Source: a virus (lineage: Duplodnaviria; Heunggongvirae; Uroviricota; Caudoviricetes). From it: 64,000 nt of DNA. Shown in pieces: positions 1-54,531 of this stretch. The stretch lies in the IMG/VR virus record IMGVR_UViG_3300045988_147305, one strand, 5' to 3'. Below the pieces are notes generated by a model. It was not told the DNA's origin, searched no databases, and saw only the letters and a program-made list of their open reading frames with translations. Each line of letters opens with the position of its first letter. Within the stretch, counting starts at the first letter, position 1. A program made the translations under genes and the position numbers.

Positions 1-450
1 ATGCAGCCTTGACAGCTTTCGGTGTGGCGGCCAGCACTTCAGACGTGCTGTTAGTGGCACTACTGAGCTGAGTGATGCCTTTCGCTGTCAATGAAGCTGT
101 TGGCACACCAGTAATCTGATTCCAGGGATGTGTATGACTGGATGGTGCCTTTCCGGCTGCTAGATCGTATGCAGCTTTAACCGCTTTTGGCGTTGCAGCT
201 AATGTTTCAGAAGTGCTGTTGGTGTCGCTACTGAGCTGAACTATCCCTTTTTGTGTCGTGGTTGCATCCTGGGCTGTATACTTCCCGTTAGCCAGGTCAT
301 ATGCAGCCTTGACAGCTTTCGGTGTGGCGGCCAGCACTTCAGACGTGCTGTTAGTAGCACTGCTGAGCTGAACTAATCCCTTTTGCGTTGTGCTTGCATC
401 CTGCGCCGTATACTTGCTTTTCGCCAGATCGTAGGCTTTTTTAACTGCCA
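1..450. repeat. Tandem repeats of about 150 bp (3 copies) inside tail fibre gene
   Basis: Positions 1-60 and 301-360 are identical except for one base; 151-300 is a diverged copy. Confidence 0.8.
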
Positions 451-1035
451 GCGAACTTGCAGCGACATCACTTCTGGTACTGGTTACAGAGTCGGAAATT
501 TCAATGCCTATCGTGAGATCGATGCGGTCGGATACATCTATCATTTCCTGAGTAATAGCAGATACGCCAGCAGGGATATTCACCGTACAAACAAGCAGTT
601 CCCCATCTCCTAACTGATATGAATCGGTATAGGTTCTGGCAACAAATTCAGCCGCATGAATATGTGACGCGGTATTAACCTGATAAGAATCTTCTCCAAG
701 GAGGTATCTTCCCTTCAGCACAATTGCATATTTCTTACCTGCGCTAAGTGCAAGAGAAATATCCTTACGCTGCTGAATAGTTACCTGGTAGAATTCACCA
801 ATATTCACTGACGCCGCGCCAGCGGTTTTATCACCATCCACTGAGGTGATTAACAGGTTCATTCCACCGCCAGGCTTAGGCAAGAAACCAGCATAAAATC
901 CCGGGTCAACAATTCCCCTGAATTTTCGGTTTAGAGCGGCTGACAGATATGGTTCGTGGTATTGCACATCAGCCACCAGAGCCAACGACTCGGGTGATGG
1001 GTAAGTAACCGATGTAACAACTGTAACGTCATTCA
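1..1035 (-). CDS. Tail fibre protein S, N-terminal constant part (partial; 3' end lies beyond window start)
   Basis: Minus-strand frame open from ATG at 1033-1035 to the window edge, so absent from the ORF track. Hand translation starts MNDVTVVTSVTYPSPESLALVADVQ and contains repeated TQKG-VQLSS-TNSTSE-LAATPKAVKAAYDLA tail-fibre motifs. Confidence 0.75.
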
Positions 1036-1047
1036 TCAAGCATATCC

Positions 1048-1482
1048 TTATGCTGTAGTCGAGTTTATGGCCATAACTGCGGTATATGTTTTGCCCACAT
1101 ACAGCGAGTCTTCTTGGACACAAATAATGGCGATTGGCTTATTCTCGTTATCCAGAACAACCAGAGTGTTGAATGGGTAGTTTTTCCCTTCCTGCAACTG
1201 ACTTTGATCAAGGTCCATTCGGACAGTAATTATCCCGCCTGAGTAGGTTGGGACGAGGTTGATGGTGCAAAATTGACTGGTCAGTTCTGCCAGATCGAAA
1301 GCCTTTGGCAGTTCTCCAATCTCATAAGTGCCATCTCCTTTCTTAGTAACCAGTGAACTGGTACCGAAAACGGCCTTGCTGATTAAAAATCGAGAGCCTT
1401 TGTTAATGGACGATTCAGCGCGCCGCTGATAGTAATAGTCCAACAACTGACTCTTATAGAGGTTTGTTGAGACGTCAGACAT
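1048..1482 (-). CDS. Tail fibre-associated structural protein (P1 R-like position)
   Basis: 144-aa ORF immediately upstream of the tail fibre gene in the same operon. Confidence 0.55.
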   Translation of the reverse strand: MSDVSTNLYKSQLLDYYYQRRAESSINKGSRFLISKAVFGTSSLVTKKGDGTYEIGELPKAFDLAELTSQFCTINLVPTYSGGIITVRMDLDQSQLQEGKNYPFNTLVVLDNENKPIAIICVQEDSLYVGKTYTAVMAINSTTA

Positions 1483-1560
1483 GATTTTCCCTAATCAATG
1501 TTGTGAAGCCTCATTGTAAGATAAGTAACTTGTCACCCCGCCCTGCGGACGGGGTGATTG

Positions 1561-2400
1561 TCACGCATCGCTATCCAACAGCAAATCATCTGCGCGGGTG
1601 CGATCAAACGTAGGCGTTGCTTTCACAATAGTGCCGCCCGGCGTTGCAGTGATCGGGGCGTTAATCGACGTAACTTCAGTAAGCGAAGTTGTATCCGAAG
1701 TTTCAAACCAGCAGAATGCTTTTTCGGTATCAGAAATCTCATTCAAAGTGATCATGTCGGCCTGTTCATTTACAACAACCGACAAATAGAGCGTAAGCCC
1801 ATCAAACACTATATGCAGTGGCAGTAGAGGCTTTACGAACTGATTAAACTTTCTGAGAATTTCTTCTGTAATTGCGGACTGATCTATCGTTCCAGTAATA
1901 CCCATTGTCCGGGCCAGGTCGTTTATGGGAATACTGATCATTCCTCTGGAAGTCAGAAACATCTCGCCGAATGTGCTGCCGGTGGTTTCCAGTGTGCTTT
2001 CTGGAATCAGGACCGTGCCATAGGGATGACGTTCAAAGTCCACCGGAGCATATATGGGATCCCATAAAACCGATATACCGTTAAATTCGCGATAAATTGT
2101 CTGGTTTATAGGGCGTTCAGTACCCTTAAAATGGATCTCATCAAACCGCTGTTGTAACAACATCGGAACGGAAGATGAATTCGACGTTCTGATAGTAAAA
2201 AACTGGCCAAGTTCATTTGTCCTAGTCTCCAGATCCTCCTTGCTCATGGAGAAAATAGACTTCCGGTTGGTAATTCGCTCCAACCATGGGTCAACAAAGG
2301 TGTCCATCATTGACTGAACCAAATCAGCCAATGATTTATAAAGTAATGACTTTTGCTTAGCTGATGTAAGCCGGTTATTAAACCAGGAACGTTGCATCAC
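1561..2400 (-). CDS. Baseplate protein (P1 gp16-like position)
   Basis: 279-aa ORF, translationally coupled (ATGA-type overlap) with the upstream baseplate gene. Confidence 0.5.
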   Translation of the reverse strand: MMQRSWFNNRLTSAKQKSLLYKSLADLVQSMMDTFVDPWLERITNRKSIFSMSKEDLETRTNELGQFFTIRTSNSSSVPMLLQQRFDEIHFKGTERPINQTIYREFNGISVLWDPIYAPVDFERHPYGTVLIPESTLETTGSTFGEMFLTSRGMISIPINDLARTMGITGTIDQSAITEEILRKFNQFVKPLLPLHIVFDGLTLYLSVVVNEQADMITLNEISDTEKAFCWFETSDTTSLTEVTSINAPITATPGGTIVKATPTFDRTRADDLLLDSDA

Positions 2401-3830
2401 TCCTCCTCATACGAAATATTAAAGGTGGAGTTTTCTGTATCCAGATAAACGAAATCGTAAAAGCCGTTGGACTCATTCCACTCGACAAATTCCAGATAAA
2501 AGTCGCGGAAATAACCCAGCGTTTCGATAAATGCCCAAACGTCTTTTTTCTTGATTAGGATGTACTTGCCGACACGGTTCGGATCAAAGAAAGTTGAGTC
2601 ACGCCCAAATTTTGTTTCCAGTGCCGACTTCAGCTCATCAGTCACGTTCTCAATGGTCAGGCTTGCCGATATCCGCCCAGTGATGGTGATCTTAAAGGGT
2701 AGTTTTCTGACCTCTTTATACGAGAATTTCTTGTTCAACTCATTCGGCACCTTCTTAAAGGCAGCCAGGATCATTTCTTCAAGCTCTGACTGGCTTTTGT
2801 TTGGATGCCATCCTGAAATAAATATCTTATTGATATTCCGAACATTATAAGCACCATCTAATTTCTCTTGCTGGCCTTCGCCCCATGCCTTTACCCAGGA
2901 CAGTCCCGGGATGTTACGCACCAGAAAATACGTATAGTCCCCGCCCCATACGACCTGATCATCATAGGCAAGGTAATATTGTGCACGATTACGTGTGATC
3001 TCCGTTGTTTCGGCATCGGTACCTGCGGTTATGGGTGTCGTTGTCTTAACTGAAATCAAATTAGCTAAATTAGCCGCAGAATCGACAGGAGTCAGGTTTT
3101 GGCCAGCAACCAGGGTTATATCTCCGTTGGTGCACCATACCTTAAGTGTAATGGTCGAGCCTTCTGGCGGTATTTGCCCAATTAGCCCATCACCGAATCG
3201 AACCCCCAACTGCTCGGATGGCTTATAAAACTCAACGTAGACCTGGCTTTTACTACCGGCTAACCGGAACATAGTGCTGGAAGACCACTGCGTGGTCTTA
3301 CCATCGGTCGTCACGAATACTTCCAGCTTATAGCAGACAGCAGTGAGAGCCTTTGATAACACGACTTCCAGAAATTCTTTGGCTGCCGTAACGGTATATG
3401 TCACCTCCTGGATTTCCAACTGTGCCACTTCTACCGTACCGGTGCCGTCAACCAACCTGCATACATCCATAGTCATGTAAGGGTACTGGTCGTCAGATAT
3501 TAAAGGCGTGTTTTTGGGGATTACCGCTGGAGCATCTTCACTTGTGGCTGTGATCTCAACCATCCCGGATGACGGTGTTGGCTTGGTACCAACGTAACTA
3601 TTCGTTTCTGCCGCTGCCAGGATAGAGGAACGCCGCGTCGCGGTCGATATAAAGCCTTCAGCCAGCGCCGCATCGGCATACTGAAAGCACCTGTAGACAA
3701 TCTGGGTAATAAACAATGTCAGCATCGAGACAAATTGAGAGCCGACAAACTTCGACCAGAATGAATCTTTCTCGACAAGCTCTTCAAACTCTGCACGAAT
3801 ACTGTCTTTAGTCGGTGTTGTTTTACTCAT
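2397..3830 (-). CDS. Baseplate J-like protein
   Basis: 477-aa ORF between a GPW-like gene and tail fibre genes, the typical myovirus baseplate order. Confidence 0.55.
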   Translation of the reverse strand: MSKTTPTKDSIRAEFEELVEKDSFWSKFVGSQFVSMLTLFITQIVYRCFQYADAALAEGFISTATRRSSILAAAETNSYVGTKPTPSSGMVEITATSEDAPAVIPKNTPLISDDQYPYMTMDVCRLVDGTGTVEVAQLEIQEVTYTVTAAKEFLEVVLSKALTAVCYKLEVFVTTDGKTTQWSSSTMFRLAGSKSQVYVEFYKPSEQLGVRFGDGLIGQIPPEGSTITLKVWCTNGDITLVAGQNLTPVDSAANLANLISVKTTTPITAGTDAETTEITRNRAQYYLAYDDQVVWGGDYTYFLVRNIPGLSWVKAWGEGQQEKLDGAYNVRNINKIFISGWHPNKSQSELEEMILAAFKKVPNELNKKFSYKEVRKLPFKITITGRISASLTIENVTDELKSALETKFGRDSTFFDPNRVGKYILIKKKDVWAFIETLGYFRDFYLEFVEWNESNGFYDFVYLDTENSTFNISYEEE

Positions 3831-4186: not shown

Positions 4187-7100
4187 TCAACTCTCGCGTA
4201 GTCATTCATCAACGGATCATCAATTGACAGTGGCACCGTGCGCATAACGCCCGGTTGAGGCGTGCTGACCTTTACGACAGTTCCCTGGCCTTTCGCCGAG
4301 TCTTTAGTGTGCTCTTCAATCCTGGCAAGCAATGAGGTCATCTGCGCAAACAGCCGCTTCGTTTCACCATCAAGTGAAACGGTATTATCAGCCAACTGCA
4401 TTGTCGGCTTGGCACCGGAGCCGCCAAGGTCACTAATAACCTGTCCGTCTATCTGCATACGACCGGTTGGTTGCTGCAAATCGTTGGCGGCAGTCGTCAC
4501 CAGGGACGTGGAGGCTGGTTCAGGCGCATTATTTTTCCGCATCCCCGGCGAGTTGCGGAGTTTATCGAATAGTCCATCAATCCCCATTTGTGCGCCGAGT
4601 TGGTCAAAGTAACTTGAGTTGCTGGCCACCGGACGCGCCTCTTCAACTGGCATCGGAGTATCAACATACACATTGCCAGCTGCTGTTGCGGTCCCCTTCC
4701 CTCGTGCACGTTCTTCGAGCGTTCCCTGAACGACTTCCCGACGCATACCCCGGCCATTCATGAATTTGTTGACCAGATCGTTAACACCAACAGCATTGCC
4801 AATTTTGTCTACCAGACCGCCTTTCTCAAACGGGCTATCACCAGGGGTAAACGCCAGGCCAGTAGACTGATCGATAACAGCGTTATCAGGCAGCTTTTCG
4901 TGAATTGCTGGTGCGCTATGATCTACCTTAGAGCCATAAACGGCACCATTATTGAGCATCTGCTGATACCCTCTGACACGAGTAACATATTCGCCGGTAC
5001 CGGCGACTACTCTCCCCTTATCAACATGCCCCATACCAGCATGATAGGCAGCTATTGCACGACCCTGATCACCGTTATAACGGTTCATCAGCATACTTAG
5101 GTATCTGGCGGCACCATCAGCTGCTTTTCGTGTATCCATGGCATCAGCATCGCTGAGTCCAAGATCCTCCCTTGTACCTTTAGTGATCTGAAAAGCCCCA
5201 AGGGCAGATGAAAGTTTGTTCCCGTTTTTGTCTACTGGATTTCCAGTTCTCTGGCCTGCACTAGACTCTGCGGATGCAACTGCTGACAGAATCCCTTTTT
5301 CAAGCCCATACTTACGTTCAAGCTCATCAAAATAATCGGCATTGTCAGAAATCCATTGGTATCCGGCAGCATTTAATTTTGGCAAAGAAACATCCTTGCC
5401 ATTGTTAAATCGACGTTTATCTATCTCATATGCACTTAATGCTTCCTCCTTACCTGTAGCAGACTGGCCCAAGGCAGCATCAATTGTTTGTGCTGCTTTA
5501 TTTCCTGTTTCTACGGCATTTGCATTGATAATCTGATTAGCAGTTTCTTTAACTGTTTTATTGCTATCTTTCGCCATATCCAGGGCCGCATTTATCACGC
5601 GAGCAGCAATATTAGTCTGTTTGGCATCGGATTCAGCTTTAGAATCAGATGTCCCCTGCTGGCTATTAACCGGAGCTTTTAACTCTGGAGTGATTTCTTT
5701 CGCATTAGCCTCGCCGATCGGATTGGGTATTTTTGATACAATCATTGCCGCAGGGGTATTTTTAACGGCATCAACCGCTGCATCTAATGCTTTACCTGGT
5801 AAATTTTTAACCCCATCCCAAATATTACTAGCTGCCTCTTTAATGTGTTTCCCTGGGTTCTTAATGAAATCAATTGCACTATCAATTGCATCACTGAAAA
5901 CCTGTTTCAGGTTATCGACAGTAAAGAAGTCTTTGATGGCATCCAGCTTTTCAAGCAGCTTATTAGATGTATCGCTAAACCATGCTGAAACAGCATCACC
6001 AATCTTTGCTGTGTAATCATCGAACTTGGTAGAAATGGTGTCGCCAAGGTTAGAAATATATGTTTCTAAGTTGGTAATCCCACTATCAATGGCCTGGGCA
6101 ATACTTTCCGTCGAAAATGATTGCAACATATTGCCGATATCCTCAAATCCAAGTGATTTGAGAGCCTCACCAATGGCGCTGCTAATACCAGATACCAGTC
6201 CCCCCATATCAAGAACATTAGCTAACGTATAAGCGGCTTTTTGCTGGAATGATGGATCTTGTCCTGATTTAAGCCCAAACGCTCGACGTTGCGTTTCTGT
6301 ATCATTCCAACCGGTTACCGCATCATAAATACCTCCAGCCACTGTGCCGACTAGGGGAATTGCGCGTAACGCCCCTTTACCAACTGCCTTTAATCCAAGT
6401 TTACCTGCTGCCCGGGCAGCCAAATCTCCGCCTTCATGGGCGAGAGTCTTCTTGCCACCACCGCGTAGCATTCCTACAAGTTTCTTTGCCCCCAGAGCGC
6501 CAAAAGCGAGTGCTCCAGCTTTTTTCAGCATGCCACGCCCCATTAACAACGACGCGACGCCACCGGCCCCCTTCCCTAACAGGCTAAATAGTTTGGACAG
6601 CAAGCCGCCCTTCTTTTTCCCGGTGTTTTTGGCTATCTGATCAAGGGCGCTGAGAATCTTGTCATTGCCCTCTTTAATTTCGCTGGTCTGCTCCTGAAGT
6701 TCCTGAACCGTCCGTTTTTGGGTGTTAACCTGAACGACATCGGCACTATTTTGCGATTTACGCCTAAAAAAACCTTTTCTACGGCTGTTATCGTCATTGC
6801 CACGAATCACATCGGCAATAGACTTTCTGGCACCATTAAGCGATCCACCAACTTCTTTTGATATCCCGCCAAGCTCCTTCCCTGCTGCCCACAATGGACC
6901 AGCAACGGCATAACCTAACGCATCGACGGCACGAGTCTCTGAAGGGTTACCTATGCCTTCAGCTACTTTTGACAGTTTTTTTAATAAACCTGATTCAGCA
7001 TTTAGACGCTCATCATCCTCTTTGCGCCTGGCCTTTTCAGCACGTTCAGCACGGGCATCTTCCGCTGCGGCCTTACTCCCTGACTTTCCAATAAAACGAC

Positions 7101-7854
7101 CACGCGCATCGCGTTGGTTTTGGCTTTTTTGCGCACCGCCTTTTTGATCGAACATTTCGCGAGCGTGTTCGGCTGCTTCGGTCCGTTGTGCCTTTATATC
7201 CTCTGATATAGCCTTCCTGCGTCTTTTTTTACCCTTTGGTGTAGTTGATTTGGCCTGCTGTTCCTCTTGAGCAATGCCCTCCTGAACTACACGAGAAACG
7301 TCCCCTAAATTAAGCCGTTTCATTGCGTCAACAATAGGGTCTACTGATGGCGCATTGGCCACAAAGTCTGGCCGGGAATTTTCGATTGTTCGATTTAATG
7401 CCGACACACTGCGAGATACTGGGTCAACCGTTGCAACGCGTTCCCCTTTCAAATCACGAGCGAGTTTGACCGTTTCTAACCGCTGTGCTTTAACATCCTC
7501 TGTTATTGCCTCTCTTCGTCTATTTGGGGGATTGTGCGCTGTTGGTGCAGCCTGCTGTTCACGGTTAGTGACTTTGTCCTCCCGTATACGAGAAACGTCC
7601 CCTAAATTAAGCCGTTTCATTGCGTCAACAATAGAGTCCACTGATGGCACATTGGTCACAAAGTCAGGACGTGAATTTTCGATTGTGCGATTTAATGCCG
7701 ACACACTGCGAGAGACAGGATCAACAGTTGCAACTCGTTCCCCTTTCAAATCTTCAACAGCTTCCCGAATACCTGCAAGCTCTTCCAGCTCTTTCGCGCT
7801 GGCGGTTTCAACTGTCCTTATAACATCGTCAATATTGGCGTTTTTTCTTTCCAT
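4183..7854 (-). CDS. sit: Sit-like structural injection transglycosylase / tape-measure-like protein
   Basis: 1223-aa protein with Gly/Ala-rich and coiled-coil segments and a soluble lytic transglycosylase domain (ASAESS ... AYHAG motifs); N-terminal internal duplication. Confidence 0.85.
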   Translation of the reverse strand: MERKNANIDDVIRTVETASAKELEELAGIREAVEDLKGERVATVDPVSRSVSALNRTIENSRPDFVTNVPSVDSIVDAMKRLNLGDVSRIREDKVTNREQQAAPTAHNPPNRRREAITEDVKAQRLETVKLARDLKGERVATVDPVSRSVSALNRTIENSRPDFVANAPSVDPIVDAMKRLNLGDVSRVVQEGIAQEEQQAKSTTPKGKKRRRKAISEDIKAQRTEAAEHAREMFDQKGGAQKSQNQRDARGRFIGKSGSKAAAEDARAERAEKARRKEDDERLNAESGLLKKLSKVAEGIGNPSETRAVDALGYAVAGPLWAAGKELGGISKEVGGSLNGARKSIADVIRGNDDNSRRKGFFRRKSQNSADVVQVNTQKRTVQELQEQTSEIKEGNDKILSALDQIAKNTGKKKGGLLSKLFSLLGKGAGGVASLLMGRGMLKKAGALAFGALGAKKLVGMLRGGGKKTLAHEGGDLAARAAGKLGLKAVGKGALRAIPLVGTVAGGIYDAVTGWNDTETQRRAFGLKSGQDPSFQQKAAYTLANVLDMGGLVSGISSAIGEALKSLGFEDIGNMLQSFSTESIAQAIDSGITNLETYISNLGDTISTKFDDYTAKIGDAVSAWFSDTSNKLLEKLDAIKDFFTVDNLKQVFSDAIDSAIDFIKNPGKHIKEAASNIWDGVKNLPGKALDAAVDAVKNTPAAMIVSKIPNPIGEANAKEITPELKAPVNSQQGTSDSKAESDAKQTNIAARVINAALDMAKDSNKTVKETANQIINANAVETGNKAAQTIDAALGQSATGKEEALSAYEIDKRRFNNGKDVSLPKLNAAGYQWISDNADYFDELERKYGLEKGILSAVASAESSAGQRTGNPVDKNGNKLSSALGAFQITKGTREDLGLSDADAMDTRKAADGAARYLSMLMNRYNGDQGRAIAAYHAGMGHVDKGRVVAGTGEYVTRVRGYQQMLNNGAVYGSKVDHSAPAIHEKLPDNAVIDQSTGLAFTPGDSPFEKGGLVDKIGNAVGVNDLVNKFMNGRGMRREVVQGTLEERARGKGTATAAGNVYVDTPMPVEEARPVASNSSYFDQLGAQMGIDGLFDKLRNSPGMRKNNAPEPASTSLVTTAANDLQQPTGRMQIDGQVISDLGGSGAKPTMQLADNTVSLDGETKRLFAQMTSLLARIEEHTKDSAKGQGTVVKVSTPQPGVMRTVPLSIDDPLMNDYARVD
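7270..7790. repeat. Tandem duplication of about 300 bp inside sit
   Basis: 7285-7335 matches 7580-7635 and 7361-7480 matches 7661-7770; the protein repeats LKGERVATVDPVSRSVSALNRTIENSRPDFV twice. Confidence 0.8.
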
Positions 7855-7935
7855 GATCTTATCGCCTACCGTTTCGGTTTAAGTTTTTCTTCCAGTTTCT
7901 CCAACAGGAAAAACGCATAGGATTCAGTAAGCCTT

Positions 7936-8817
7936 TCAGCGTCCTGAATCGGTATACCCCCATACAAAACCAGGTTGGACACTAAGGTCTGATAGCTTTT
8001 CAATCCCCACCTGTGGAATGAAGTCGGTAGCCCGAAAGGGCACCCACAGACGGGTATACGCACCCTCTGTGGACTCCTTTGTATCCTGGTTTGGGCATTT
8101 GTGCGGCGGGAGACGAAGACGCATTTCGCCTTTATCGATGTAGCACGGTAAACCATGTTCGAGCTTTTCATGAGCCAGCCGGATGTGTGCCGCCAGCTTC
8201 ATAAATTCAGTATCAATGGCCATCCGTTTGATCGTTTCATAACGACGCTCAGCCTGCTCTTCACGAGTACCGCTAACATCGTTATAAAGTTCACACTGAT
8301 AAGCGAATTCCCAAAAACGCAAATCAACGATCGCTTCTTTGAATTCCGCGTCGTCTTCAGGTGGCAATGCTGCTCGGCGCATCTCCAGCATTTCCATTGC
8401 CCAACCATCAAGCGGCACGATACGCCATTGATAAGGCACGCCCTCTACAGACACCTCAATATCGTCAATGAACGGTTCCACTTCCAGGACCTGGATATCT
8501 TCAGCCAGAGCATTCATATCGCAATCGTAATAATGCTCTTTACCGCAATGTTTACAGGTGTAGGTGAATGTCTCGACCGGTGTTTCACGGGAGCCGGTAA
8601 ATATCCACCATAACGCGGTAATCCGGTCCTGCGCCGTCCATGTCAGGGGATCATGTTTCGCGGGTTCAGCCAGCAAGGCTTTTAAATATGCCGTTGTCTG
8701 TTGTTCTTGTTCCTCCGGTGTTATCGAGTTGAAACGCATCGCATCAGCAATATTTGGCTGACGGAACTGGATCAATTCAGTTGGCCGCGATGGTAGCGGG
8801 AAAAGGGGTAAAAGCAT
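7936..8817 (-). CDS. Putative morphogenetic protein (P1 pmgB-like position)
   Basis: 293-aa ORF in the late operon between the tube-like gene and sit. Confidence 0.45.
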   Translation of the reverse strand: MLLPLFPLPSRPTELIQFRQPNIADAMRFNSITPEEQEQQTTAYLKALLAEPAKHDPLTWTAQDRITALWWIFTGSRETPVETFTYTCKHCGKEHYYDCDMNALAEDIQVLEVEPFIDDIEVSVEGVPYQWRIVPLDGWAMEMLEMRRAALPPEDDAEFKEAIVDLRFWEFAYQCELYNDVSGTREEQAERRYETIKRMAIDTEFMKLAAHIRLAHEKLEHGLPCYIDKGEMRLRLPPHKCPNQDTKESTEGAYTRLWVPFRATDFIPQVGIEKLSDLSVQPGFVWGYTDSGR

Positions 8818-8831
8818 CCTTGCTCCTTAAT

Positions 8832-9443
8832 TCAAAGAGAAAAACTAAAGCCCAGAAGGGAAGCCAAAGAACTTGAGGATTGGTTAAACGTGCTGTGCAA
8901 TGCGAAGGTCATTGGGAATGACTTAAATTCCGTAACCTGATCCCGCGCATAGGTGACATCGCCGGTAGTGACCGGGAATACCGTCATCTCATTTTCCAGT
9001 TTGGTTAAACCGGAGGACAGCAACCGATAAATACGCACATTGAGCAAATATTTAGACGGTATATTCCCGGTACCGTCCGGATTGATCACCCGACTTTTTG
9101 CCGTCTTAAACCAGTCCAAAACGAGGCCATCAACGGTATCCCTGACCATCATTGTTATCTGCCCAGGCGAACGCTCCGTTGGCTGAAGGATATTCCCTCC
9201 GCCGATTTTAATCGTTTCATATTCGATGCTGTAATCGTGGTAGGTAATGTCTTTAGCAAAGAAGTCTGCCCCCTCCAGACCATCAACTTCGACAGAGAAC
9301 TGCCATCCTTGCGCGAACAGCATTTTGTTCATGATGATTGACGTCAGCTTACCAACTTCCCGCTCACCAACGCCGGAGCCAAATAATGTCGTCGTTAATG
9401 CCGAAGATACATAAGACTTTACTGAAGCAACATTAAGCCCCAT
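8832..9443 (-). CDS. Putative tail tube protein (P1 tub-like position)
   Basis: 203-aa ORF (about 22 kDa) in the position of P1 tub; assignment by synteny only. Confidence 0.4.
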   Translation of the reverse strand: MGLNVASVKSYVSSALTTTLFGSGVGEREVGKLTSIIMNKMLFAQGWQFSVEVDGLEGADFFAKDITYHDYSIEYETIKIGGGNILQPTERSPGQITMMVRDTVDGLVLDWFKTAKSRVINPDGTGNIPSKYLLNVRIYRLLSSGLTKLENEMTVFPVTTGDVTYARDQVTEFKSFPMTFALHSTFNQSSSSLASLLGFSFSL

Positions 9444-9453
9444 ATCAGCCCCC

Positions 9454-10044
<591 letters not shown>

Positions 10045-10075
10045 TTAACCGATTCTACGAGTAGTCATTTGTTCA
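10045..10075 (-). promoter_or_regulatory. Candidate Lpa-dependent late promoter
   Basis: Minus-strand sequence AACAAATGACTACTCGTAGAATC about 30 nt upstream of the ATG; almost the same 18-mer recurs at 42614-42640. Confidence 0.45.
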
Positions 10076-10171
10076 TTGAGTAGGAATATTGTTGTCTGGG
10101 GGGTAATCAGTGTAGGTGGAATGAGGGATATGATATGGTTATCACATAATCAGGTTGTTTTGAGTAAAACA

Positions 10172-10201
10172 ATAAAACGCCCTTTAATGGGCGTTTTTTT
10201 A
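10172..10201. terminator. Bidirectional rho-independent terminator
   Basis: Hairpin AACGCCCTTTAATGGGCGTT flanked by A-run and T-run. Confidence 0.6.
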
Positions 10202-10228
10202 AACTTAAATTGACTATCCTTTCAAATA

Positions 10229-11008
10229 CTATTTTAATTCTATGTAATTTTTAAATTCTCCCTCATATTTATACATGATGCTATCAAATCCTTCCATTAC
10301 ATCAACGAATTGTTGTGAACATTCCGGCTTCCAAGGCGTACACTTACGAACCATATCCATTTTTTTCTTATCCTTCGTTGTATCGACTAAGGATAGGTAC
10401 CCTATAAAATTCATCATCTGAACAGGATCTTGATTTGTGAATATATATTTGACGTTTTGCTTAGTAGGCGAAAAAGAATCAAAAGCAGGGAACATATATT
10501 CACCAGAAAAAGAGAGTGCAGCATCAATGACGTCTGTTGCAGGAGTGCAGTTGCTCAGAATTGGCACTAAGCTAAAATTAGCACCGGAGCACACTGCATA
10601 TATATCATCCCCTTTTTTTAGTTTTAACAGAGAGTCTTGCTTTGAATCCAATATTTTCAATTTGATATAATTTAGTGGCGTTGCATTTTCCCCTGGAGTA
10701 AATAATTCTACAATTGGTTTATTATTCACCATTCTTATGGATTTTATTTCACCATACACAATTGGAATTGTGTTCCATTTTTCCTGAGCAGCAAATTCAT
10801 TATCTTTAAAATCATTAACCAACTCAGATGGCAAATGATAACCAAATTGATTGTTCATTGCTTTCGAAGCAAATCCAGACAAATAGAATGCCCTTACTAA
10901 ATCATAATCTTTCTTTGAGGTAGAAAGCCAATCTGGCAATTTATTATCAGCTATCGCGCTTCCAGCAAAAATAGCACAACAAAATGTTATTACATTAAAT
11001 AATTTCAT
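10229..11008 (-). CDS. SimC-like secreted protein (superimmunity locus)
   Basis: Predicted signal peptide MKLFNVITFCCAIFAGSAIA; AT-rich gene between the late operon and the immunity region, where P1 carries simABC. Confidence 0.5.
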   Translation of the reverse strand: MKLFNVITFCCAIFAGSAIADNKLPDWLSTSKKDYDLVRAFYLSGFASKAMNNQFGYHLPSELVNDFKDNEFAAQEKWNTIPIVYGEIKSIRMVNNKPIVELFTPGENATPLNYIKLKILDSKQDSLLKLKKGDDIYAVCSGANFSLVPILSNCTPATDVIDAALSFSGEYMFPAFDSFSPTKQNVKYIFTNQDPVQMMNFIGYLSLVDTTKDKKKMDMVRKCTPWKPECSQQFVDVMEGFDSIMYKYEGEFKNYIELK

Positions 11009-11015
11009 TTTCCAT

Positions 11016-11333
11016 TCACTCATTAATCGGTTTAAACTCACTAATTAATTCACCAAGACTATTTGGGTATGCTTTATAAATAACATACTCCGAAGAGCCA
11101 TCTGAATATTGGTAAACCCCATAACAGACCAGTTTATTTATTCCTTTCTGAATAGTTTTTTGATTATAAGAATCAACCACTGTTATTCCATATGACGATA
11201 ATATTTCGTTATATTCTTCAATAAGAGCTTTTCTTGTTTCCACTGAATTGCAATCTACCTTCGAAAAGTCAACTTCATCAGCAAAAACATTAAATGTTAA
11301 AAAGGAAAGCACTAAAAACAAACGAATCAGCAT
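11016..11333 (-). CDS. Small secreted protein (sim locus)
   Basis: Signal peptide MLIRLFLVLSFLTFNVFA; AT-rich. Confidence 0.45.
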   Translation of the reverse strand: MLIRLFLVLSFLTFNVFADEVDFSKVDCNSVETRKALIEEYNEILSSYGITVVDSYNQKTIQKGINKLVCYGVYQYSDGSSEYVIYKAYPNSLGELISEFKPINE

Positions 11334-11344
11334 AAATCCACTCC

Positions 11345-11476
11345 TACGCATGGATTAATAGTCATTGATCGCAAAGGCGTAAACGTGCCCAAGGTATTTC
11401 GTATAATCGGTACAAATCTCCTTTACGCTTGATGCTGCATTAACAGTCCCAGCCATAAATAATAACGGTAGTAATA
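11345..11476 (-). CDS. 43-aa secreted peptide (sim locus, candidate simA)
   Basis: Hand-translated MRKLLLPLLFMAGTVNAASSVKEICTDYTKYLGHVYAFAINDY with RBS AGGTGAGG; below the ORF-track size cutoff. Confidence 0.35.
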
Positions 11477-11582
11477 GTTTTCTCATTATAACCTCACCTG
11501 CCTTATAACTCATTTAGGGTACATATTTTCGCCTTTAAAAAAAAGAGGTTATTAGATCCAACTGTGTATTTATTAAACAAAT

Positions 11583-11599
11583 AATGCTCTAATAAATTT
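11583..11599 (+). promoter_or_regulatory. C1 repressor operator (Op51-like)
   Basis: AATGCTCTAATAAATTT matches the P1 C1 operator consensus. Confidence 0.7.
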
Positions 11600-11774
11600 G
11601 TATTTTTAAGTCGCGAATGCTATCTTTTCGCATCATATTGACCTTTTAATCGTTCAGGCTTATAGTTCCACCGTCGTAGCAAATTCTGCGACCGGGTTTG
11701 ACAGCCTGAATGTTAGTGCGGACAACCGCAGATTTCCGATATTGCGGTATTTTTGTGTCCGTAAACCGCGTTAC

Positions 11775-11860
11775 GCCCGAATTATGGTGGGGCGTGATGG
11801 GGAGGCTTCGGCCTGCTGGTTTCACTAACGCCAGTCTGTCAACCCTGTCACGTCCTGCCA
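11775..11860 (+). ncRNA. c4-like antisense immunity RNA (approximate bounds)
   Basis: CACTAAC...CTGTCAACCC (11825-11845) is complementary to the direct-repeat targets GTTTGACAGC/GTTAGTG at 11693-11715 and 11861-11895, the latter just upstream of the icd RBS. Confidence 0.4.
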
Positions 11861-11912
11861 CCTGTTTGACAGCGGGTAGCAGGTTGTTAAACCTGTTAGT
11901 GAGGCCGTAACT

Positions 11913-12134
11913 ATGGTTAATGCCAATCCTTGCACACGCCCAGAATTCATCTGGCGTTTCTATTCCTGTAAAAAACACCACTATCACTTCGTTATCGCAG
12001 CAACTGAAGACGAAGCACGCTCTCAATTGCCTGATGGCCCCTGCATTTTTACTGCCCGTTTTTCTACTAACTCGCGCAATTCACTTAGTTACTGGAACCT
12101 CCCCTTCTCTGCCGACGTTCAGGGGGGTTTATGA
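11913..12134 (+). CDS. icd: Icd-like cell division inhibitor
   Basis: 73-aa ORF overlapping the start of ant, downstream of the c4 element. Confidence 0.6.
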   Translation: MVNANPCTRPEFIWRFYSCKKHHYHFVIAATEDEARSQLPDGPCIFTARFSTNSRNSLSYWNLPFSADVQGGL

Positions 12135-13174
12135 AAAAACCTCTCGTCACCCGTAATGAAATAGCCGAAGCGATCGCTTTGCATACTGCCTGTATGCCGA
12201 CACGGGAGATCCCCGGCGCAATTGCTAACTATTTCATGATAACCAGGCGTTTTTATACCCGAACAGATAAGGCTGTGATCAACAGGCTACTGATAGCCGA
12301 GATCAGGGATTATTTGATTGAACAAGGACGTCTACGTTACGCAACAGTGGCAGCAGAAATAAGAAAGGAGGCACATAGAATGACCGGTAATAATTTGAAT
12401 GTTGAAAAAACAGCACCTGTTACGTCAGCTACGCCAGCACCAGCCGTGAATATCATCCCCAACACCGGAGACACAATCGACAGCCAAACATTGTTGAAGA
12501 TGGTCAATGAGGCACGCAAGTTATGTGGAGAACCAGAGGTTAGAAACAATAAATTCATCGAAAAAATACTCGATGAACTTGAAGGTGAATTTTACACAAA
12601 AAGTGCAAAATCCCATGGCACAAGGGCTGGGCGCTCTTTTGAGGTCATCACCATGACCTACAAACAAGCCCTGCGAGTCGCCGCGCGCGAGTCAAAAGCG
12701 GTCCGCCGTTCGCTGATCGACAAACTGGAAGAATTGCAGCAGGCAAACTCCCCTGCCCCATCGATCCCCCAAACATTACCAGAAGCTCTACGCCTGGCTG
12801 CCGAGTTGGCAGAACAGAAAATGCAGCTGGAACAACAGCTGGTGGCCGCAGCCCCTAAAGTCGATTTTGCCGACCGGGTATCAGTGGCTAATGGAATCCT
12901 GATCGGGAACTTTGCAAAGGTCGTTGGACTTAAGCAAAACGCCCTTTTCTCATGGTTGCGCCAGAACGGCATTCTCATGGCTTTTGGTGCGCGCAAAAAC
13001 GTACCGCGCCAGCAGTACATTAACGCCGGGTATTTCACGGTGAAAGAAGTGGTGCTGGATGATGAAAATGGCTACCAGATACGGCTGACGCCCCAATTAA
13101 CGGGTAAAGGCCAGCAGTGGTTAACTCGCAAGCTACTTGATGCTGGTTTGTTAAAACCAGTAGCAATAGGTTAA
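12131..13174 (+). CDS. ant: Antirepressor Ant1 (in-frame Ant2 start near 12380), KilAC C-terminal domain
   Basis: 347 aa; C-terminal LPEALRLAAELAEQK...GKGQQWL KilAC/AntB-type domain; internal Met (MTGNNL) with upstream GGAGG. Confidence 0.75.
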   Translation: MKKPLVTRNEIAEAIALHTACMPTREIPGAIANYFMITRRFYTRTDKAVINRLLIAEIRDYLIEQGRLRYATVAAEIRKEAHRMTGNNLNVEKTAPVTSATPAPAVNIIPNTGDTIDSQTLLKMVNEARKLCGEPEVRNNKFIEKILDELEGEFYTKSAKSHGTRAGRSFEVITMTYKQALRVAARESKAVRRSLIDKLEELQQANSPAPSIPQTLPEALRLAAELAEQKMQLEQQLVAAAPKVDFADRVSVANGILIGNFAKVVGLKQNALFSWLRQNGILMAFGARKNVPRQQYINAGYFTVKEVVLDDENGYQIRLTPQLTGKGQQWLTRKLLDAGLLKPVAIG

Positions 13175-13187
13175 CAAAAGAAAAAAA

Positions 13188-13212
13188 CCTGCCAGCAAAC
13201 TGGCAGGTTTCT
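13188..13212 (+). terminator. Rho-independent terminator after ant
   Basis: Hairpin CCTGCCAGCAAACTGGCAGG followed by TTTCTG. Confidence 0.55.
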
Positions 13213-13252
13213 GAGCAGATCGTCCAACCCGATCTGGATCGAGCCAGAAAAA

Positions 13253-13269
13253 TTTGCTCTAATAAATTT
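13253..13269 (+). promoter_or_regulatory. C1 operator (Op53-like) upstream of kilA-repL
   Basis: TTTGCTCTAATAAATTT. Confidence 0.7.
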
Positions 13270-13338
13270 CGTTTTCTAAGTGCAAAGAATCACCATTTCG
13301 AGCTGGTGATTGAAGGTTGATGCAAATTTGGAGAAAAA

Positions 13339-14139
13339 ATGCAACAAACATTCAATGCGGATATGAATATATCAAACCTTCATCAAAATGTCGATCCTTC
13401 AACCACTCTGCCCGTTATTTGTGGTGTTGAAATTACGACCGACCGCGCTGGCCGTTACAACCTTAATGCTCTACACAGAGCGAGCGGACTCGGTGCCCAT
13501 AAAGCGCCAGCTCAATGGCTAAGAACGCTGTCAGCTAAACAGCTCATCGAAGAGCTTGAAAAAGAAACTATGCAGAATTGCATAGTTTCGTTCGAAGGCC
13601 GTGGCGGCGGCACTTTTGCCCATGAATTGCTCGCTGTGGAGTACGCAGGCTGGATTTCTCCCGCGTTTCGGCTGAAGGTAAACCAGACATTTATCGACTA
13701 TCGAACCGGAAGATTACAACCTGCTATTCCGCAGAGTCTCCCTGAAGCTCTCCGTTTGGCTGCCGACCTGGCAGAGCAAAAGCAACGGCTGGAGCAAAAA
13801 ATGCTTATGGATGCACCTAAAGTCGAATTCGCTGAACGCGTTGCTACCGCCAGCGGGGTTCTAATCGGCAACTATGCCAAAGTGCTCGGCCTGGGCCAAA
13901 ACTATCTCTTCACCTGGTTGCGTGATAACGGAATTCTGATCGCAACCGGTGAACGCAGGAACGTCCCCAAACAAGAATACATATCCCGTGGGTATTTCAC
14001 CCTTAAAGAAACCGTGATCGATACAAGCAATGGAAGCAGGATTTCTTTCACGACTCGTATAACCGGCAAAGGTCAGCAGTGGCTGATGAAGCGATTGCTT
14101 GATGCTGGTGTGCTGGTACCTGTCGCGGCAACGCGCTAA
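13339..14139 (+). CDS. kilA: KilA (KilA-N plus KilAC domains)
   Basis: 266 aa; N-terminal KilA-N/APSES-like segment (RYNLNALHRASG...KAPAQWLRT) and C-terminal KilAC domain paralogous to Ant. Confidence 0.75.
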   Translation: MQQTFNADMNISNLHQNVDPSTTLPVICGVEITTDRAGRYNLNALHRASGLGAHKAPAQWLRTLSAKQLIEELEKETMQNCIVSFEGRGGGTFAHELLAVEYAGWISPAFRLKVNQTFIDYRTGRLQPAIPQSLPEALRLAADLAEQKQRLEQKMLMDAPKVEFAERVATASGVLIGNYAKVLGLGQNYLFTWLRDNGILIATGERRNVPKQEYISRGYFTLKETVIDTSNGSRISFTTRITGKGQQWLMKRLLDAGVLVPVAATR

Positions 14140-14168
14140 CAGACGTAGTAAGAACCACCAGCATTGTA

Positions 14169-15014
14169 ATGCTGGCTAAAGTCACTTTCCTGAGCTGTAT
14201 AACGATGAGCGATTTTACTTTTTCTGGCTATGAATTGGCCTGCTTTGTAACACACTCCGGTCTATCCCGTAGCGCCGGGCATATCCTGTCGCAATGTGCA
14301 AATCTCGCGGCAACAACCAGTGAATACTTCATTCACAAGCCTCACCGCCTGATCGCGGCAGAAACTGGTTATAGCCAATCAACCGTCGTTCGTGCATTCC
14401 GTGAAGCTGTAAACAAAGGAATCCTGTCTGTAGAGATTGTTATCGGCGATCACCGTGAACGTCGCGCTAACCTGTACCGGTTTACACCATCCTTTTTGGC
14501 CTTCGCACAACAAGCCAAAAATGCGCTGATTGAAAGCAAATTAAAGATCTCTTCAGCGGCAACCAAGGTTAAAGCTGTTCTCGCTAAGACATTGGCTTTA
14601 TTTAATTTTTTATCCACACCCCCATGTCAAAATGATACCCCCTCCCCCTGTCAGGATGACGTGGCAATAAAGAATAAGAAGTCACAAGTTAAAAAAACAA
14701 AAAGATCAGTTTCCGGCGGTGCCGGAACGAGCAGACTCAAAAAATTGACTTCATGGATCGCTGAGACAAAAGCAAAGGCTGACAATCTGCGGTTATCCAA
14801 AAAACGCGCACAAAAACATGAGTTCAAGCAGAAAGTAGAGGCGGCAGCGCGGAAATATGCTTACCTGAAGAACAAGCGTTCTCCTGATATTGGCGGGGTA
14901 TCAAACTTCGATAATTTGCCGCATTGCATGACGGTAAACGAAGCTCTTAATGCGGTTTTAGCCAAAAATAAAGATAACGAAAAATGGGGTATACCGGCAG
15001 GATTCAGAGGGTGA
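14169..15014 (+). CDS. repL: RepL-like lytic replication protein
   Basis: 281 aa with wHTH-like segment; directly downstream of kilA under the same C1 operator. Confidence 0.55.
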   Translation: MLAKVTFLSCITMSDFTFSGYELACFVTHSGLSRSAGHILSQCANLAATTSEYFIHKPHRLIAAETGYSQSTVVRAFREAVNKGILSVEIVIGDHRERRANLYRFTPSFLAFAQQAKNALIESKLKISSAATKVKAVLAKTLALFNFLSTPPCQNDTPSPCQDDVAIKNKKSQVKKTKRSVSGGAGTSRLKKLTSWIAETKAKADNLRLSKKRAQKHEFKQKVEAAARKYAYLKNKRSPDIGGVSNFDNLPHCMTVNEALNAVLAKNKDNEKWGIPAGFRG

Positions 15015-46363: not shown

Positions 46364-46582
46364 ATGTGGCCATTCCGACGGAAATATCACTACTGGCTGA
46401 TCGCCTTTGTTACGCCGACCGGCGGTATCAGGCATGTCATCACCAGGTATCGCAACAAGAGACTCACCTTAGCCAGAATTTTACAGGCTGCCATAGGTGA
46501 GGGACTGGATACAAATTGCGTAGTCCTTCCTCCTTCATACTTAGGAAAAATGACCGAAGCACAAGCTAATACGGAACTTTGA
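46364..46582 (+). CDS. Small hypothetical protein
   Basis: 72-aa ORF directly after the operator pair. Confidence 0.35.
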   Translation: MWPFRRKYHYWLIAFVTPTGGIRHVITRYRNKRLTLARILQAAIGEGLDTNCVVLPPSYLGKMTEAQANTEL

Positions 46583-46583
46583 A

Positions 46584-47846
46584 ATGAGCACTTCAGCACA
46601 AAACCAATCAATCGAAAATGTATGTATCCCTGATGTCCTGAATGCCGGTATCCCGGCCATTATCCAGAACATCCGGGCCGCGCAACGCCGCGTTAGTTGT
46701 GATGACCTCACAGCACGTTTTTTTGATAATGCGGTTCAGTCAGCGGAGATGCTTCACGCACAGCTTATTGATGTTTATAACGCAGAAGCTGATAGCCATA
46801 ACTCCCTGGTAGATGCAGCTGAAAATATGCAGTTGGATCTCGGTCTGAAGGGTAAAGAAATTGAAGAGCTTCAGCTGGAAATTGAACATTTGAAACGCCA
46901 GCAACAGGACGCGATCGACGATGCGACGCATGACGCCAACCAGCGTGCTGATAATGCCGAACGTATAAGCATTGAGCTGGAAACAAAACTCAATGAAATG
47001 ACCGCGATGGTTGAACTGCGGAACTCACAGATTTCAACGCTAAAATCTCAATATAAAGAGATCATGAAACTTGATCCTTTTAACCTTGAGAAACGCTATA
47101 ACAAAGCTAAAAGCGAGCGACAGGAACTGCGTAAGCAGGTCGCCGACCTTAACCAACAGCTCAAAAAAACTATTAAAGATGCAAGCGAGGCGCGCGTGGC
47201 ATTTGCTAATAAAAAAGCAGAGGTTACCGCGCTGGTTAATGAGAATGCCAAATTTGCGACGCTCAAGAAGGAAATGTATGGCATTACTGAGCGCCGTTTC
47301 CCTGCAAGCAAACTTCATCCGACGTTAGGGCAAATCTCCTTCTTCCCGCGCCTCCTGGCTTATGGGATCTCATCGCCTAAAGAGTTCAATAACGAGCGTC
47401 CTTATATCGTTTCTAAGCTGGACTTTGCTTATCAGTTCTGCTGCGACATGGGCTATGCCATTGATATCCGAATCAACGAATGGTTGATGCCAAACTTCCA
47501 GCCGTTGGCAATTTTCCGCGAGTTCCAGCCGGAAGGTTGGGTAGAGTTCTTCCATGAATTGATCTGTAAAGAGATGGAAAGCCGTCGCCCGGAATTGGTC
47601 CGTCGAGTTGAGTGGGCGCAAGAGGTTATGTTGGCAGATGCAGAGCTGCCGTTCGAACCGGAATTCATTGATGATCTGGCAACTAAAGGGCTGCATACCC
47701 TGTTTGATGTGGTTACCCGCCGTCATGAGCAGTTGGTTGTCGAATTGGGTTTAGAGGAAACTGCGGCAAGAAGACTTCTCGATGTTTGCTATGCACGTAG
47801 CGATGCATGGGAAAAAGAGAACGGCGGCACTATTTACGTTCGCTGA
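46584..47846 (+). CDS. Coiled-coil protein of unknown function
   Basis: 420 aa; long predicted coiled coil at residues about 60-220. Confidence 0.45.
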   Translation: MSTSAQNQSIENVCIPDVLNAGIPAIIQNIRAAQRRVSCDDLTARFFDNAVQSAEMLHAQLIDVYNAEADSHNSLVDAAENMQLDLGLKGKEIEELQLEIEHLKRQQQDAIDDATHDANQRADNAERISIELETKLNEMTAMVELRNSQISTLKSQYKEIMKLDPFNLEKRYNKAKSERQELRKQVADLNQQLKKTIKDASEARVAFANKKAEVTALVNENAKFATLKKEMYGITERRFPASKLHPTLGQISFFPRLLAYGISSPKEFNNERPYIVSKLDFAYQFCCDMGYAIDIRINEWLMPNFQPLAIFREFQPEGWVEFFHELICKEMESRRPELVRRVEWAQEVMLADAELPFEPEFIDDLATKGLHTLFDVVTRRHEQLVVELGLEETAARRLLDVCYARSDAWEKENGGTIYVR

Positions 47847-47918
47847 TAGTTACAGTGTCACTTTTAATGCTGGTGGAGTGCTCCCACCAGCATTTTTTTC
47901 GTCCAATGAGGAGGGCAT

Positions 47919-48425
47919 TTGAGTATTTTCAATAAACACGCACACCAGGAACGTCCGTACATCGTCATAGTAGATATTGATGGGACGATATCAGAGGCAA
48001 CGGAAGACAGGCTGCATTTACTTCCACCACCTGGCAAAGGTGCATTAACAGAGCACTGGAACGAGTTTAACCTTGCCTGTGACACTGATGCTCCCATCAC
48101 TCCAGTTATTGATATGGTGCGCCAGTTGTCCGGCATTTACACCCTCTGGTTTGTAACCGGGCGCTGTGAGATAGCCAGGGATAAAACACGAGCCTGGTTG
48201 CGTAAGCACGTAACAAATGGGGCGGAGCCTTTGCTATCTATGCGTCCTGCCACCGATGACAGAAATGACGGTCCAGCAAAGATTGATCTCCTGAAGAAAA
48301 TTGGTCTAAGTAAAATTGCGTTCGCGCTGGAAGATAAGATTGAAGTGGCGCGTGTTTTCAGGAGTCACGGCGTACTTACGTTAATGGTCAGGGAGTATGA
48401 AAACGCGCTTCTCCATCAACAATAA
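47919..48425 (+). CDS. HAD-superfamily phosphatase-like protein
   Basis: N-terminal DIDGT motif; 168 aa. Confidence 0.5.
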   Translation: MSIFNKHAHQERPYIVIVDIDGTISEATEDRLHLLPPPGKGALTEHWNEFNLACDTDAPITPVIDMVRQLSGIYTLWFVTGRCEIARDKTRAWLRKHVTNGAEPLLSMRPATDDRNDGPAKIDLLKKIGLSKIAFALEDKIEVARVFRSHGVLTLMVREYENALLHQQ

Positions 48426-49744: not shown

Positions 49745-50370
49745 TGATGTGCTTGCGTGAAACTGTGGGTAATAACGCCTCATTCCATTGCCATAACGGC
49801 AATGGTTACAGTTCTGATATCGATCGCGCTCATGTTTACACGCTGGAAGAAGCCCAAAAAGCCTGGAATTGTGGGCGAGATATCGATCAGCCTGTTTGTG
49901 CCGATAGTGTGGATGCAATGGCTGTGTGGCACGTTGATTGCCAGTACATCCCTACAGAAAGCCTGATTGAGTCAGATTGCACTGCGTATGTGGCCTACAA
50001 AAAAGGTAGCTGGAACGGCAACGATGTTTACTGGCTTCAACACGGTGGATTGCCAACAGATGACTTCAGTAAAGCGACCATCTTTAGCGTCGCCAACAAA
50101 AACGAACCAGGAATAGTTTGGTTGCCATTTTCCATTGCTGATGCAGCAAAGCGCCGGACGTTCAATATCAATAAATTTAACCGCAGAACAATGGTTCAGG
50201 GCGCAGGTTTGGTCATGCCTGACTGGTTGAAAAAGCAGAACAGAAGAAAGAAGTCGCGAAGCGGGAAGGTGCGTTGGAATTGTCCGCATTGCGGAAAAAT
50301 CACCTGGCAGTACAGCCCATATGATTTTGAAGGCTGTCGTGATTACAACTGTGAAGGATGGCGAGAATGA
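49745..50370 (+). CDS. Hypothetical protein with C-terminal zinc ribbon
   Basis: WNCPHCGK ... CRDYNCEGW motif. Confidence 0.4.
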
Positions 50371-51089
50371 CAATTGACTATCAGGTACTGCGTGAGGCGG
50401 CAGAAAAGGCAACACCAGACGAATGGGTCGCATTTATTTCGCCGGGTACTGGTACATATGCGGTGCATACACCCGGTGATAAACGATGTGGAGACGTTAT
50501 CAAATGGCCCGGCTTTGATGGACAGGAAAACGCAGAGAATAACGCTCGTTATGTTGCCGCGTTCAACCCAAAGGTTGCACTGGAGCTGCTTGGTGAAATT
50601 AAGCGCCTGGAGGACACAAATATTGATGCTATGTGTCGAATTGCAGAGCTTGAGACTAATCTCGCGGCGCTGGTGGCGGAGAATGCGGGGCTTAAGGCCT
50701 TCAAAACCGCCGTTTATCAGCAGATGGGCGTCGGATGTGATGCTCCTGAATTCTCCATTACGGTAGGTTTGAGTAACTTACGTCGTTTTGCTGACACACT
50801 CCACGCCATTGAGCGTGAGTTCTTTACCAAAGAGCTACCTGATGAAGAGCACGAAGGCGAAACATTCAATGAATGTCCACTTAGCTGGGGAATGAGCGTC
50901 GAACAGTACGTTTCCGAGTTTCGCAAATGCCTGGCTGAAGTGCGGGCGCAGGGATTGGAGATGTTTGCACAGAAATGTAACTCAAAATCCGAACAGTCAT
51001 TTGCATCTGATATACGCGATAACTGGAAACTACTCGGTGAACATGCCACTGACTTTGCCGCAGAGCTTCGAAAAGGAGGCAACCAGTGA
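50358..51089 (+). CDS. Ead/Ea22-like protein, paralog 1
   Basis: N-terminal IDYQVLREAAEKATPDEW and coiled-coil middle typical of lambdoid Ea22-like proteins. Confidence 0.5.
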   Translation: MARMTIDYQVLREAAEKATPDEWVAFISPGTGTYAVHTPGDKRCGDVIKWPGFDGQENAENNARYVAAFNPKVALELLGEIKRLEDTNIDAMCRIAELETNLAALVAENAGLKAFKTAVYQQMGVGCDAPEFSITVGLSNLRRFADTLHAIEREFFTKELPDEEHEGETFNECPLSWGMSVEQYVSEFRKCLAEVRAQGLEMFAQKCNSKSEQSFASDIRDNWKLLGEHATDFAAELRKGGNQ

Positions 51090-51838: not shown

Positions 51839-52184
51839 TGCGTGTGGCATGTATCGGCTTGTTACCGTACCCGACTCGTTTTTGGGCTTCTGCGCTAATT
51901 GCGAAGCCGTATGTCCTGATGGCTGACAACATCATCCCGGCACCAAAGCGCCGCCATACCGGTATTGCAGCGGCACGACGAGCAGCAAAGAGACGCAGGA
52001 GAGCAAAGCGATGAAAAACCGTAAGGCAAAACGACTTTTTTTTACAGCGACCTGTGCGTGTGGTGGAGCTGGTTATTAGCAACCATAAGATAGCGGTACT
52101 CCATCCATTTGGTCAGGTGGCTTTTGCCGCAAAGCGTAAGCCTACTGCGTCACAGAACAGGCGGAAGAAAGGGTACGCTGTAAG

Positions 52185-52373
52185 ATGAAAAACCGTAAAG
52201 CAAAGATTCTGTTAGTTCGTAGAAACGCTCCTGGCGTCTGGCAGTGGGTGAGACTCAGCAACCGACGGATGGGGTTGATGAAATATTACGGGATGATGGA
52301 TTGTGGTTTTTGCAAAAAGCCCAGCGCGGCGCAAAACCGCTGGAAAAACCACTTGCGCACTAAAGGAGAGTGA
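52185..52373 (+). CDS. Small basic protein
   Basis: 62-aa ORF; a truncated duplicate of its first codons lies at 52012. Confidence 0.3.
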   Translation: MKNRKAKILLVRRNAPGVWQWVRLSNRRMGLMKYYGMMDCGFCKKPSAAQNRWKNHLRTKGE

Positions 52374-52377
52374 TATG

Positions 52378-53351: not shown

Positions 53352-53352
53352 T

Positions 53353-54167: not shown

Positions 54168-54249
54168 GCTGGCCTGAAGCATTCACCACGGTAGGAATTG
54201 TGATGGCGGCAGCACTGGGTTTGTATTCAATTTGTCGCTGGTGGTAACG

Positions 54250-54483: not shown

Positions 54484-54531
54484 ATTATCAATTATGGTGC
54501 TATCACCTACGACACCGAGAGAAAATTTATA

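Follow-up and report, generated by a model that had tools for sequence, protein, structure and literature searches.

The superimmunity (sim) operon of a P1-like plasmid-prophage: gene layout, a simB-simC module and a probable remnant in simA

Genes and features of the sim locus

The stretch of DNA analysed here (64,000 nt, hereafter the window) carries three adjacent genes on its minus strand, simA, simB and simC. The first, simA (11355..11486), encodes 43 aa from MRKLLL, of which the last 26 follow the signal peptide; simB (11016..11333) encodes 105 aa from MLIRLF; and simC (10229..11008), the gene of the Sim protein, encodes 259 aa from MKLFNV. The starts annotated in P1 lie further upstream, at 11513 for simA, 11351 for simB and 11023 for simC, whose maximal reading frame opens with a GTG at 11041. 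The SimC homologues all open with MK(L/I)(F/I/V)N, exactly 7 nt past the simB stop. The simB start at 11333 has an AGGAG 7 nt upstream, and both the PHROG profile and the homologues begin there, while the simA start at 11486, where its long homologues begin, has a GGTGAGG upstream. Since homologues, Shine-Dalgarno motifs and PHROG profiles agree, we favour the internal Met starts, and those of the P1 reference appear to be set too far upstream for all three genes.

An earlier, sequence-only reading of this stretch had described three minus-strand genes of about 260, 106 and 43 aa, running from 10229 to 11476 in a region of markedly lower GC. The genes are present at these sizes and the left end is right, but the right end should be moved out by about 10 nt, to the simA start at 11486 (11513 in P1). 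The GC content is indeed 0.336 across 10229-11513 against 0.475 for the whole window (sd 0.03, equal-length windows), so that the locus ranks among the lowest 0.6% of all sliding windows; no other stretch of the 64 kb is below 0.38. Within the locus, the list of open reading frames and Rfam gave no plus-strand frame above 77 aa, no tRNA and no RNA family.

Directly past simC, at 10174..10197 on the minus strand, lies an intrinsic-terminator-like hairpin with its T run, the only such site in 9950-11750. Annotation transfer from P1 places the late promoter LPsit of the tail operon (pmgC-tub-pmgB-sit) at 10052..10070 on the minus strand, with 99% identity, a predicted PsimA promoter at about 11551-11577 on the minus strand, and the C1 operator Oc4 with the divergent c4 promoters at 11583..11599 on the plus strand. 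Our promoter consensus scan found 5 sites where 8.4 were expected, showing no enrichment above chance, and we therefore make no claim on a regulation of sim by C1. High-scoring ArgR-box sequences were predicted in 2008 in P1 simC and at the simA/simB junction (PMC2409434); they correspond to window positions of about 10700 and 11350 (P1 47270 and 47906), the second of which coincides with the recombination junction at simA/simB described below.

On the tail side, the neighbours transferred from P1 are LPsit and then pmgC/tub/pmgB/sit; on the immunity side they are Oc4, c4, icd, ant1/2, kilA and repL, with sim transcribed away from c4. Rfam recovers the C4 antisense RNA (RF01695, 68.8 bits) at 11780-11865 on the plus strand, and its a1b1 target at 11660-11712. 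The position between the late tail operon and the immunity region was thus read correctly from the letters alone, and the term "sim-like" turned out to be an understatement. Indeed, window positions 10000-11700 are 99.5% identical in DNA, over 1701 nt, to positions 46556-48257 of phage P1 (NC_005856), where the matching genes are annotated simC, simB and simA. The SimA and SimB proteins are 100% identical to those of P1 and SimC is 99.6% identical, with one substitution; between the two simC genes there are four silent or near-silent changes. Gene order and neighbours are shared with the P1 sim locus (GenBank M34382, NC_005856 46786-48070), and all of this identifies the locus as the P1 sim operon, beyond mere likeness.

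The element that carries it can be assigned, by the same kind of comparison, to the P1-like plasmid-prophages of E. coli, and is distinct from P1 itself. Its flanks are 99.1% identical to P1 (over most of the length of 7000-14700), whereas the 5′ part of sit is divergent; positions 9454-12130 are 100% identical to a 147-kb E. coli plasmid (AP024695.1), and the remaining window is a mosaic of P1-like phages. The part of sit at 7000-7456 is 94% identical to P1 with an alignment offset of about 300 nt, which suggests a recombinant or length-variant tape-measure gene. At the other end of the window (50001-64000), P1-like phage records cover about 72%, many matches are to Stx-converting and other lambdoid phages, and genes for a DUF551 protein (53559-54167) and a DUF968 protein (58203-59246) are found; on these three grounds we regard this end as mosaic.

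The definition of sim dates from Devlin et al. (1982); its role in superinfection exclusion was reported by Kliem and Dreiseikelmann (1989), and its sequence, along with the purification of the processed protein, by Maillou and Dreiseikelmann (1990). Later papers refer to it as the gene by which P1 excludes superinfecting phage at the step of DNA entry (PMC8546580, PMC9177967, PMC9952470), and a CRISPRi screen scored simA, simB and simC as dispensable for lytic growth (PMC10695390). In the literature that we searched, citations for sim go back to the 1982-1990 papers and no mechanistic work after 1990 was found, in agreement with the earlier remark that the mechanism is still poorly understood. 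The sim finding is correct and already described, and the low GC and the variability among P1-like plasmids are published too. What we add, namely a simB-simC module, a simA stump and a cassette hot spot, is incremental.

The insertion site and the simB-simC module

A variable AT-rich segment at 10073..11346, holding simB, simC and the terminator, sets the P1 type apart from other P1-like elements. Homology to P7, Ro157c2YLVW and pPK5086-95kb ends at 10072 on the pmgC side and returns at 11347 in the Ro157 type and at 11585 in the P7 type, so that LPsit forms the conserved left flank of the cassette and Oc4 the conserved right flank. At this place P7 carries genes for a glycine-zipper lipoprotein and a DUF5384 protein (upf50.5/upf50.0), and Ro157c2YLVW those for a long SimA and a YfjT-family protein (gp35/gp34). 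Like sim, these cassettes are inserted between LPsit and Oc4 in the same orientation, and every product has a predicted signal peptide or lipobox. However, their proteins are unrelated to sim and their GC content is 0.42-0.43, against 0.34 for sim. The sim segment is an AT-rich, horizontally acquired insert, and its site can be described, from these alignments, as a hot spot for alternative envelope-protein cassettes.

Several observations were made on the other elements. The upf50.5 product of P7 (1696-2217 in our record L002) has a glycine-zipper segment and a match to TraT, the surface-exclusion lipoprotein of the F plasmid, of 23.1 bits, below the 31-bit cut-off; there are hints that the P7 cassette might also be an exclusion module. 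A diverged SimC at the sim site of P7 or D6 was considered and rejected, as tblastn against phage genomes returned P1-type phages only. In a divergent P1-like element (L006, 2108-3238), icd is separated from simA-simB-simC by an inserted TnpB gene of the IS605 family (OrfB_IS605, with a Cas12f-like TNB domain).

Plasmid records with matches to the flanks number 628, and 134 of them have the full P1-type locus, which puts it in about 21% of P1-like plasmids. Among complete E. coli genomes, 128 of 5426 (2.4%) carry simB-simC, 182 of the 183 places being on plasmids, and RefSeq labels the products "hypothetical protein". This distribution implies that the P1 life style does not depend on simB-simC and, together with the unrelated envelope proteins at the sim site of P7 and Ro157, lends some support to another reading of the cassette, as a lysogenic-conversion or defence module directed against heterologous phages, colicins, conjugation-like DNA entry or serum, the exclusion of P1 being a side effect of over-expression. 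The exclusion is moreover said to have been observed with the genes on multicopy clones, and P1 lysogens remain open to superinfection, which leaves the single-copy strength and the true target of Sim uncertain. Against such a module stands the published phenotype, which is the exclusion of P1 itself. In addition, no known defence family was recovered with PADLOC: none of the PADLOC-DB models matches the three proteins at E values up to 1. We consider a module of this kind distinctly unlikely, and retain an operon that excludes P1 as the preferred reading.

Within the segment, simB and simC form a unit. simB is always directly upstream of simC, and in four lineages 7 nt separate the two genes, even where SimC identity has dropped to about 37-40%. 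Besides the P1 type, the pair occurs with this spacer in L008 (SimB 92%, SimC 83% identity), in L006 (52-59% and 46-47%) and in L009 (56% and 37-40%). All three keep pmgC, tub, pmgB and sit downstream, and L006 and L009 also keep ant upstream. The dN/dS values are 0.20-0.24 for simB and 0.23-0.33 for simC. From gene order and substitution pattern, simB-simC is a discrete AT-rich module of two genes that are inherited together and kept under purifying selection. In L008 the homology spans window positions 11324 to 10149, that is simB, simC and the terminator, and the position of the module there, upstream of an intact long simA, shows that it moves as a block.

L008 itself (209-3109, Logan contig SRR14689322_4989) is a P1-like contig with two cassettes in tandem, in the order 107-aa membrane protein, simB, simC, intact 215-aa long SimA, YfjT-family protein and pmgC. 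This arrangement may represent an intermediate in cassette exchange. As for SimB, it has two invariant cysteines, and its structure model was confident in one of five runs, with a weak resemblance to cystatin-like folds; given the weakness of both model and fold matches, we draw no function from them.

Export signals and the simA reading frame

The N-termini predicted for SimA, SimB and SimC all have the Sec-type anatomy, with a positive n-region, a hydrophobic core and an AXA-type site. The predicted cleavage sites of the three products lie between MKLFNVITFCCAIFAGSAIA and DNK, between MLIRLFLVLSFLTFNVFA and DEV, and between MRKLLLPLLFMAGTVNA and ASS. For SimB the predicted signal peptide ends in VFA, before a D; that of SimC is 20 aa long and ends in AIA, before a D. 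A 20-residue signal peptide is reportedly removed from the product of ORF2 (SimC), which is said to be made as a precursor and then processed. All three proteins, taken from their internal Met starts, pass a crude, home-made signal-peptide rule, while one of the 85 window ORFs of at least 100 aa passes it from its first Met, SimC and SimB failing in this set from their longer upstream starts. A signal peptide on each product, as the sequence-only reading had it, is therefore predicted. The sole ORF of at least 100 aa that passes, at 34210-35037 on the plus strand, encodes an SPFH/Band 7 family protein (PF01145, E 1e-30).

The third of the announced genes stands differently. simB and simC hold as full genes, but simA appears to be a truncated remnant. 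Indeed, over its first 41 aa SimA shares 69-93% identity with the N-terminal 41-42 aa of intact proteins of 179-215 aa encoded at the same site in other P1-like elements. The identity is 90-93% with the 212-215-aa proteins of Ro157c2YLVW, pRHBSTW-00312_2 (L005) and L008, and 69% with the 179-aa version of L006. In the same way, SimA matches positions 1-41 of the 213-position profile phrog_3933. At the nucleotide level, the alignment with the long gene is near-perfect to about 11375, patchy to 11347 and unrelated beyond, and the ATG annotated as the simB start in P1 falls opposite a Met codon inside the long simA gene. P1 simA can thus be read as the first 41 codons of a gene for a secreted protein of 179-215 aa that is intact in other P1-like elements.

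Could what is left still work, as a small secreted peptide or an accessory factor of the sim system? The start is intact, the Shine-Dalgarno motif (GGTGAGG) is strong, the predicted signal peptide is complete, and the P1 annotation speaks of a "putative superimmunity accessory function". Moreover, a full-length SimA precedes simB-simC in L006 and L009, where the trio may act together. However, the P1 version keeps 41 of 179-215 residues and its frame ends inside the recombination junction, the simB-simC module of L008 sits apart from the 5′ end of simA, and the long SimA is also found where simB-simC is missing. A functional simA is in our judgement rather improbable, and we keep to the reading of simA as a remnant.

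SimC architecture and the proposed exclusion mechanism

After its 20-aa signal peptide, SimC is predicted to begin with a helix, followed by an OB-fold domain (aa ~60-156, window ~10541-10831, minus strand) and then by a helical domain at the C-terminus (aa ~158-257), which contains a conserved CTPWx3C motif. The AlphaFold2 model on which this description is based has a moderate confidence (pLDDT 74.8, pTM 0.52, 8 input sequences). In this model the OB domain is a five-stranded barrel, superposable on a structure of the PF12869 family, and its fold matches in BFVD are headed by phage "tRNA_anti-like" proteins. SimC itself scores 19.1 bits (E 1e-3) against Pfam PF12869 (tRNA_anti-like OB fold), below the gathering threshold of 23.5, while three of its relatives exceed this threshold (P0012, 53.8 bits; P0015, 43.7; P0014, 25.9). 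Searches of SimA, SimB and SimC in Pfam, NCBIfam and PADLOC gave nothing above threshold. Two cysteines in the barrel are conserved across the homologues, in addition to those of the CTPWx3C motif, and such cysteine pairs fit an oxidising compartment and are typical of periplasmic proteins.

The family is tiny. An exhaustive HMMER search returned 15 matches in 1.84 billion representative proteins, so that there is no large SimC family to mine, and a word-indexed homologue search returned near-identical enterobacterial proteins and no others (4 for SimC, 12 for SimB). Among structures, the closest in kind is 3f1z, a putative nucleic-acid-binding lipoprotein of Klebsiella pneumoniae and a PF12869 OB-fold envelope protein. 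Neither the SimC-family profile (best match 4mnn, E 0.16) nor the PF12869 member P0015 found a meaningful match among PDB sequences, and the link between SimC and 3f1z is thus one of fold. Compared with the PF12869 envelope proteins, SimC has a signal-peptidase I site in place of a lipobox, and it carries an extra C-terminal helical domain of about 100 residues which matches nothing.

Over-expressed SimC is said to make cells refractory to P1 at a stage between adsorption and the establishment of the DNA in the cytoplasm, and transfection reportedly bypasses the exclusion. The explanation that we favour, and hold to be quite probable as a whole, is a simABC operon of a P1-type plasmid-prophage with a periplasmic effector, SimC, its partner SimB and an inert SimA. 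SimC would be a soluble periplasmic protein, formed of an OB-fold domain of the PF12869 kind and a cysteine-stabilised helical domain, that binds something crossing the periplasm during ejection. The favoured target would be the tip of the tail tube or the ejected Sit protein (tape measure/transglycosylase), with the DNA itself as an alternative. SimB, translationally coupled to simC, would be a co-evolving periplasmic partner, whether chaperone, co-effector or inhibitor, and in P1-type elements simA would be no more than the 5′ end, without function, of a gene for a longer secreted protein.

The OB fold raises the question of nucleic acid as the ligand. SimC could capture the leading end of the P1 DNA in the periplasm, or expose it to a periplasmic nuclease. 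However, the DNA of contractile-tail phages is thought to pass in a protein conduit and may never be exposed to the periplasm. OB folds also bind proteins and sugars, so that the fold alone does not name a ligand, and to our knowledge none has been established for PF12869. We therefore regard DNA binding as unlikely, and a protein target of SimC as the preferred reading.

A bolder version would make simB-simC a self-contained, mobile periplasmic "entry lock", in which the OB fold of SimC clamps the tail tip or Sit while a cystatin-like SimB inhibits the transglycosylase domain of Sit. The inhibition by SimB is proposed by analogy with T4 Sp, and we give this version very little credence. Envelope proteins of phages and bacteria that await explanation often contain PF12869-type OB domains, and if this version held, these domains would be a general superinfection-exclusion fold.

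Sim is among the oldest superinfection-exclusion systems that lack a mechanism, and the OB-fold assignment of SimC, the pairing of simB with simC and the simA stump lead to concrete and cheap experiments. The sim site is, in addition, an example of a recombination hot spot in P1-like plasmid-prophages, which are clinically relevant carriers of resistance genes and in which envelope-protein cassettes are swapped at this position.

A phenotype like that of sim, where adsorption proceeds and the DNA does not arrive, is described for T4 Imm/Sp, P22 SieA and Ltp of the Streptococcus phage TP-J34 (PMC9952470). No sequence relation between the sim proteins and Imm/Sp, SieA or Ltp was detected with PADLOC, Pfam and NCBIfam. 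Ltp is an exported protein acting outside the cytoplasmic membrane. It is a lipoprotein of a different fold, and Imm and SieA are inner-membrane proteins, whereas SimC looks like a soluble protein of the periplasm.
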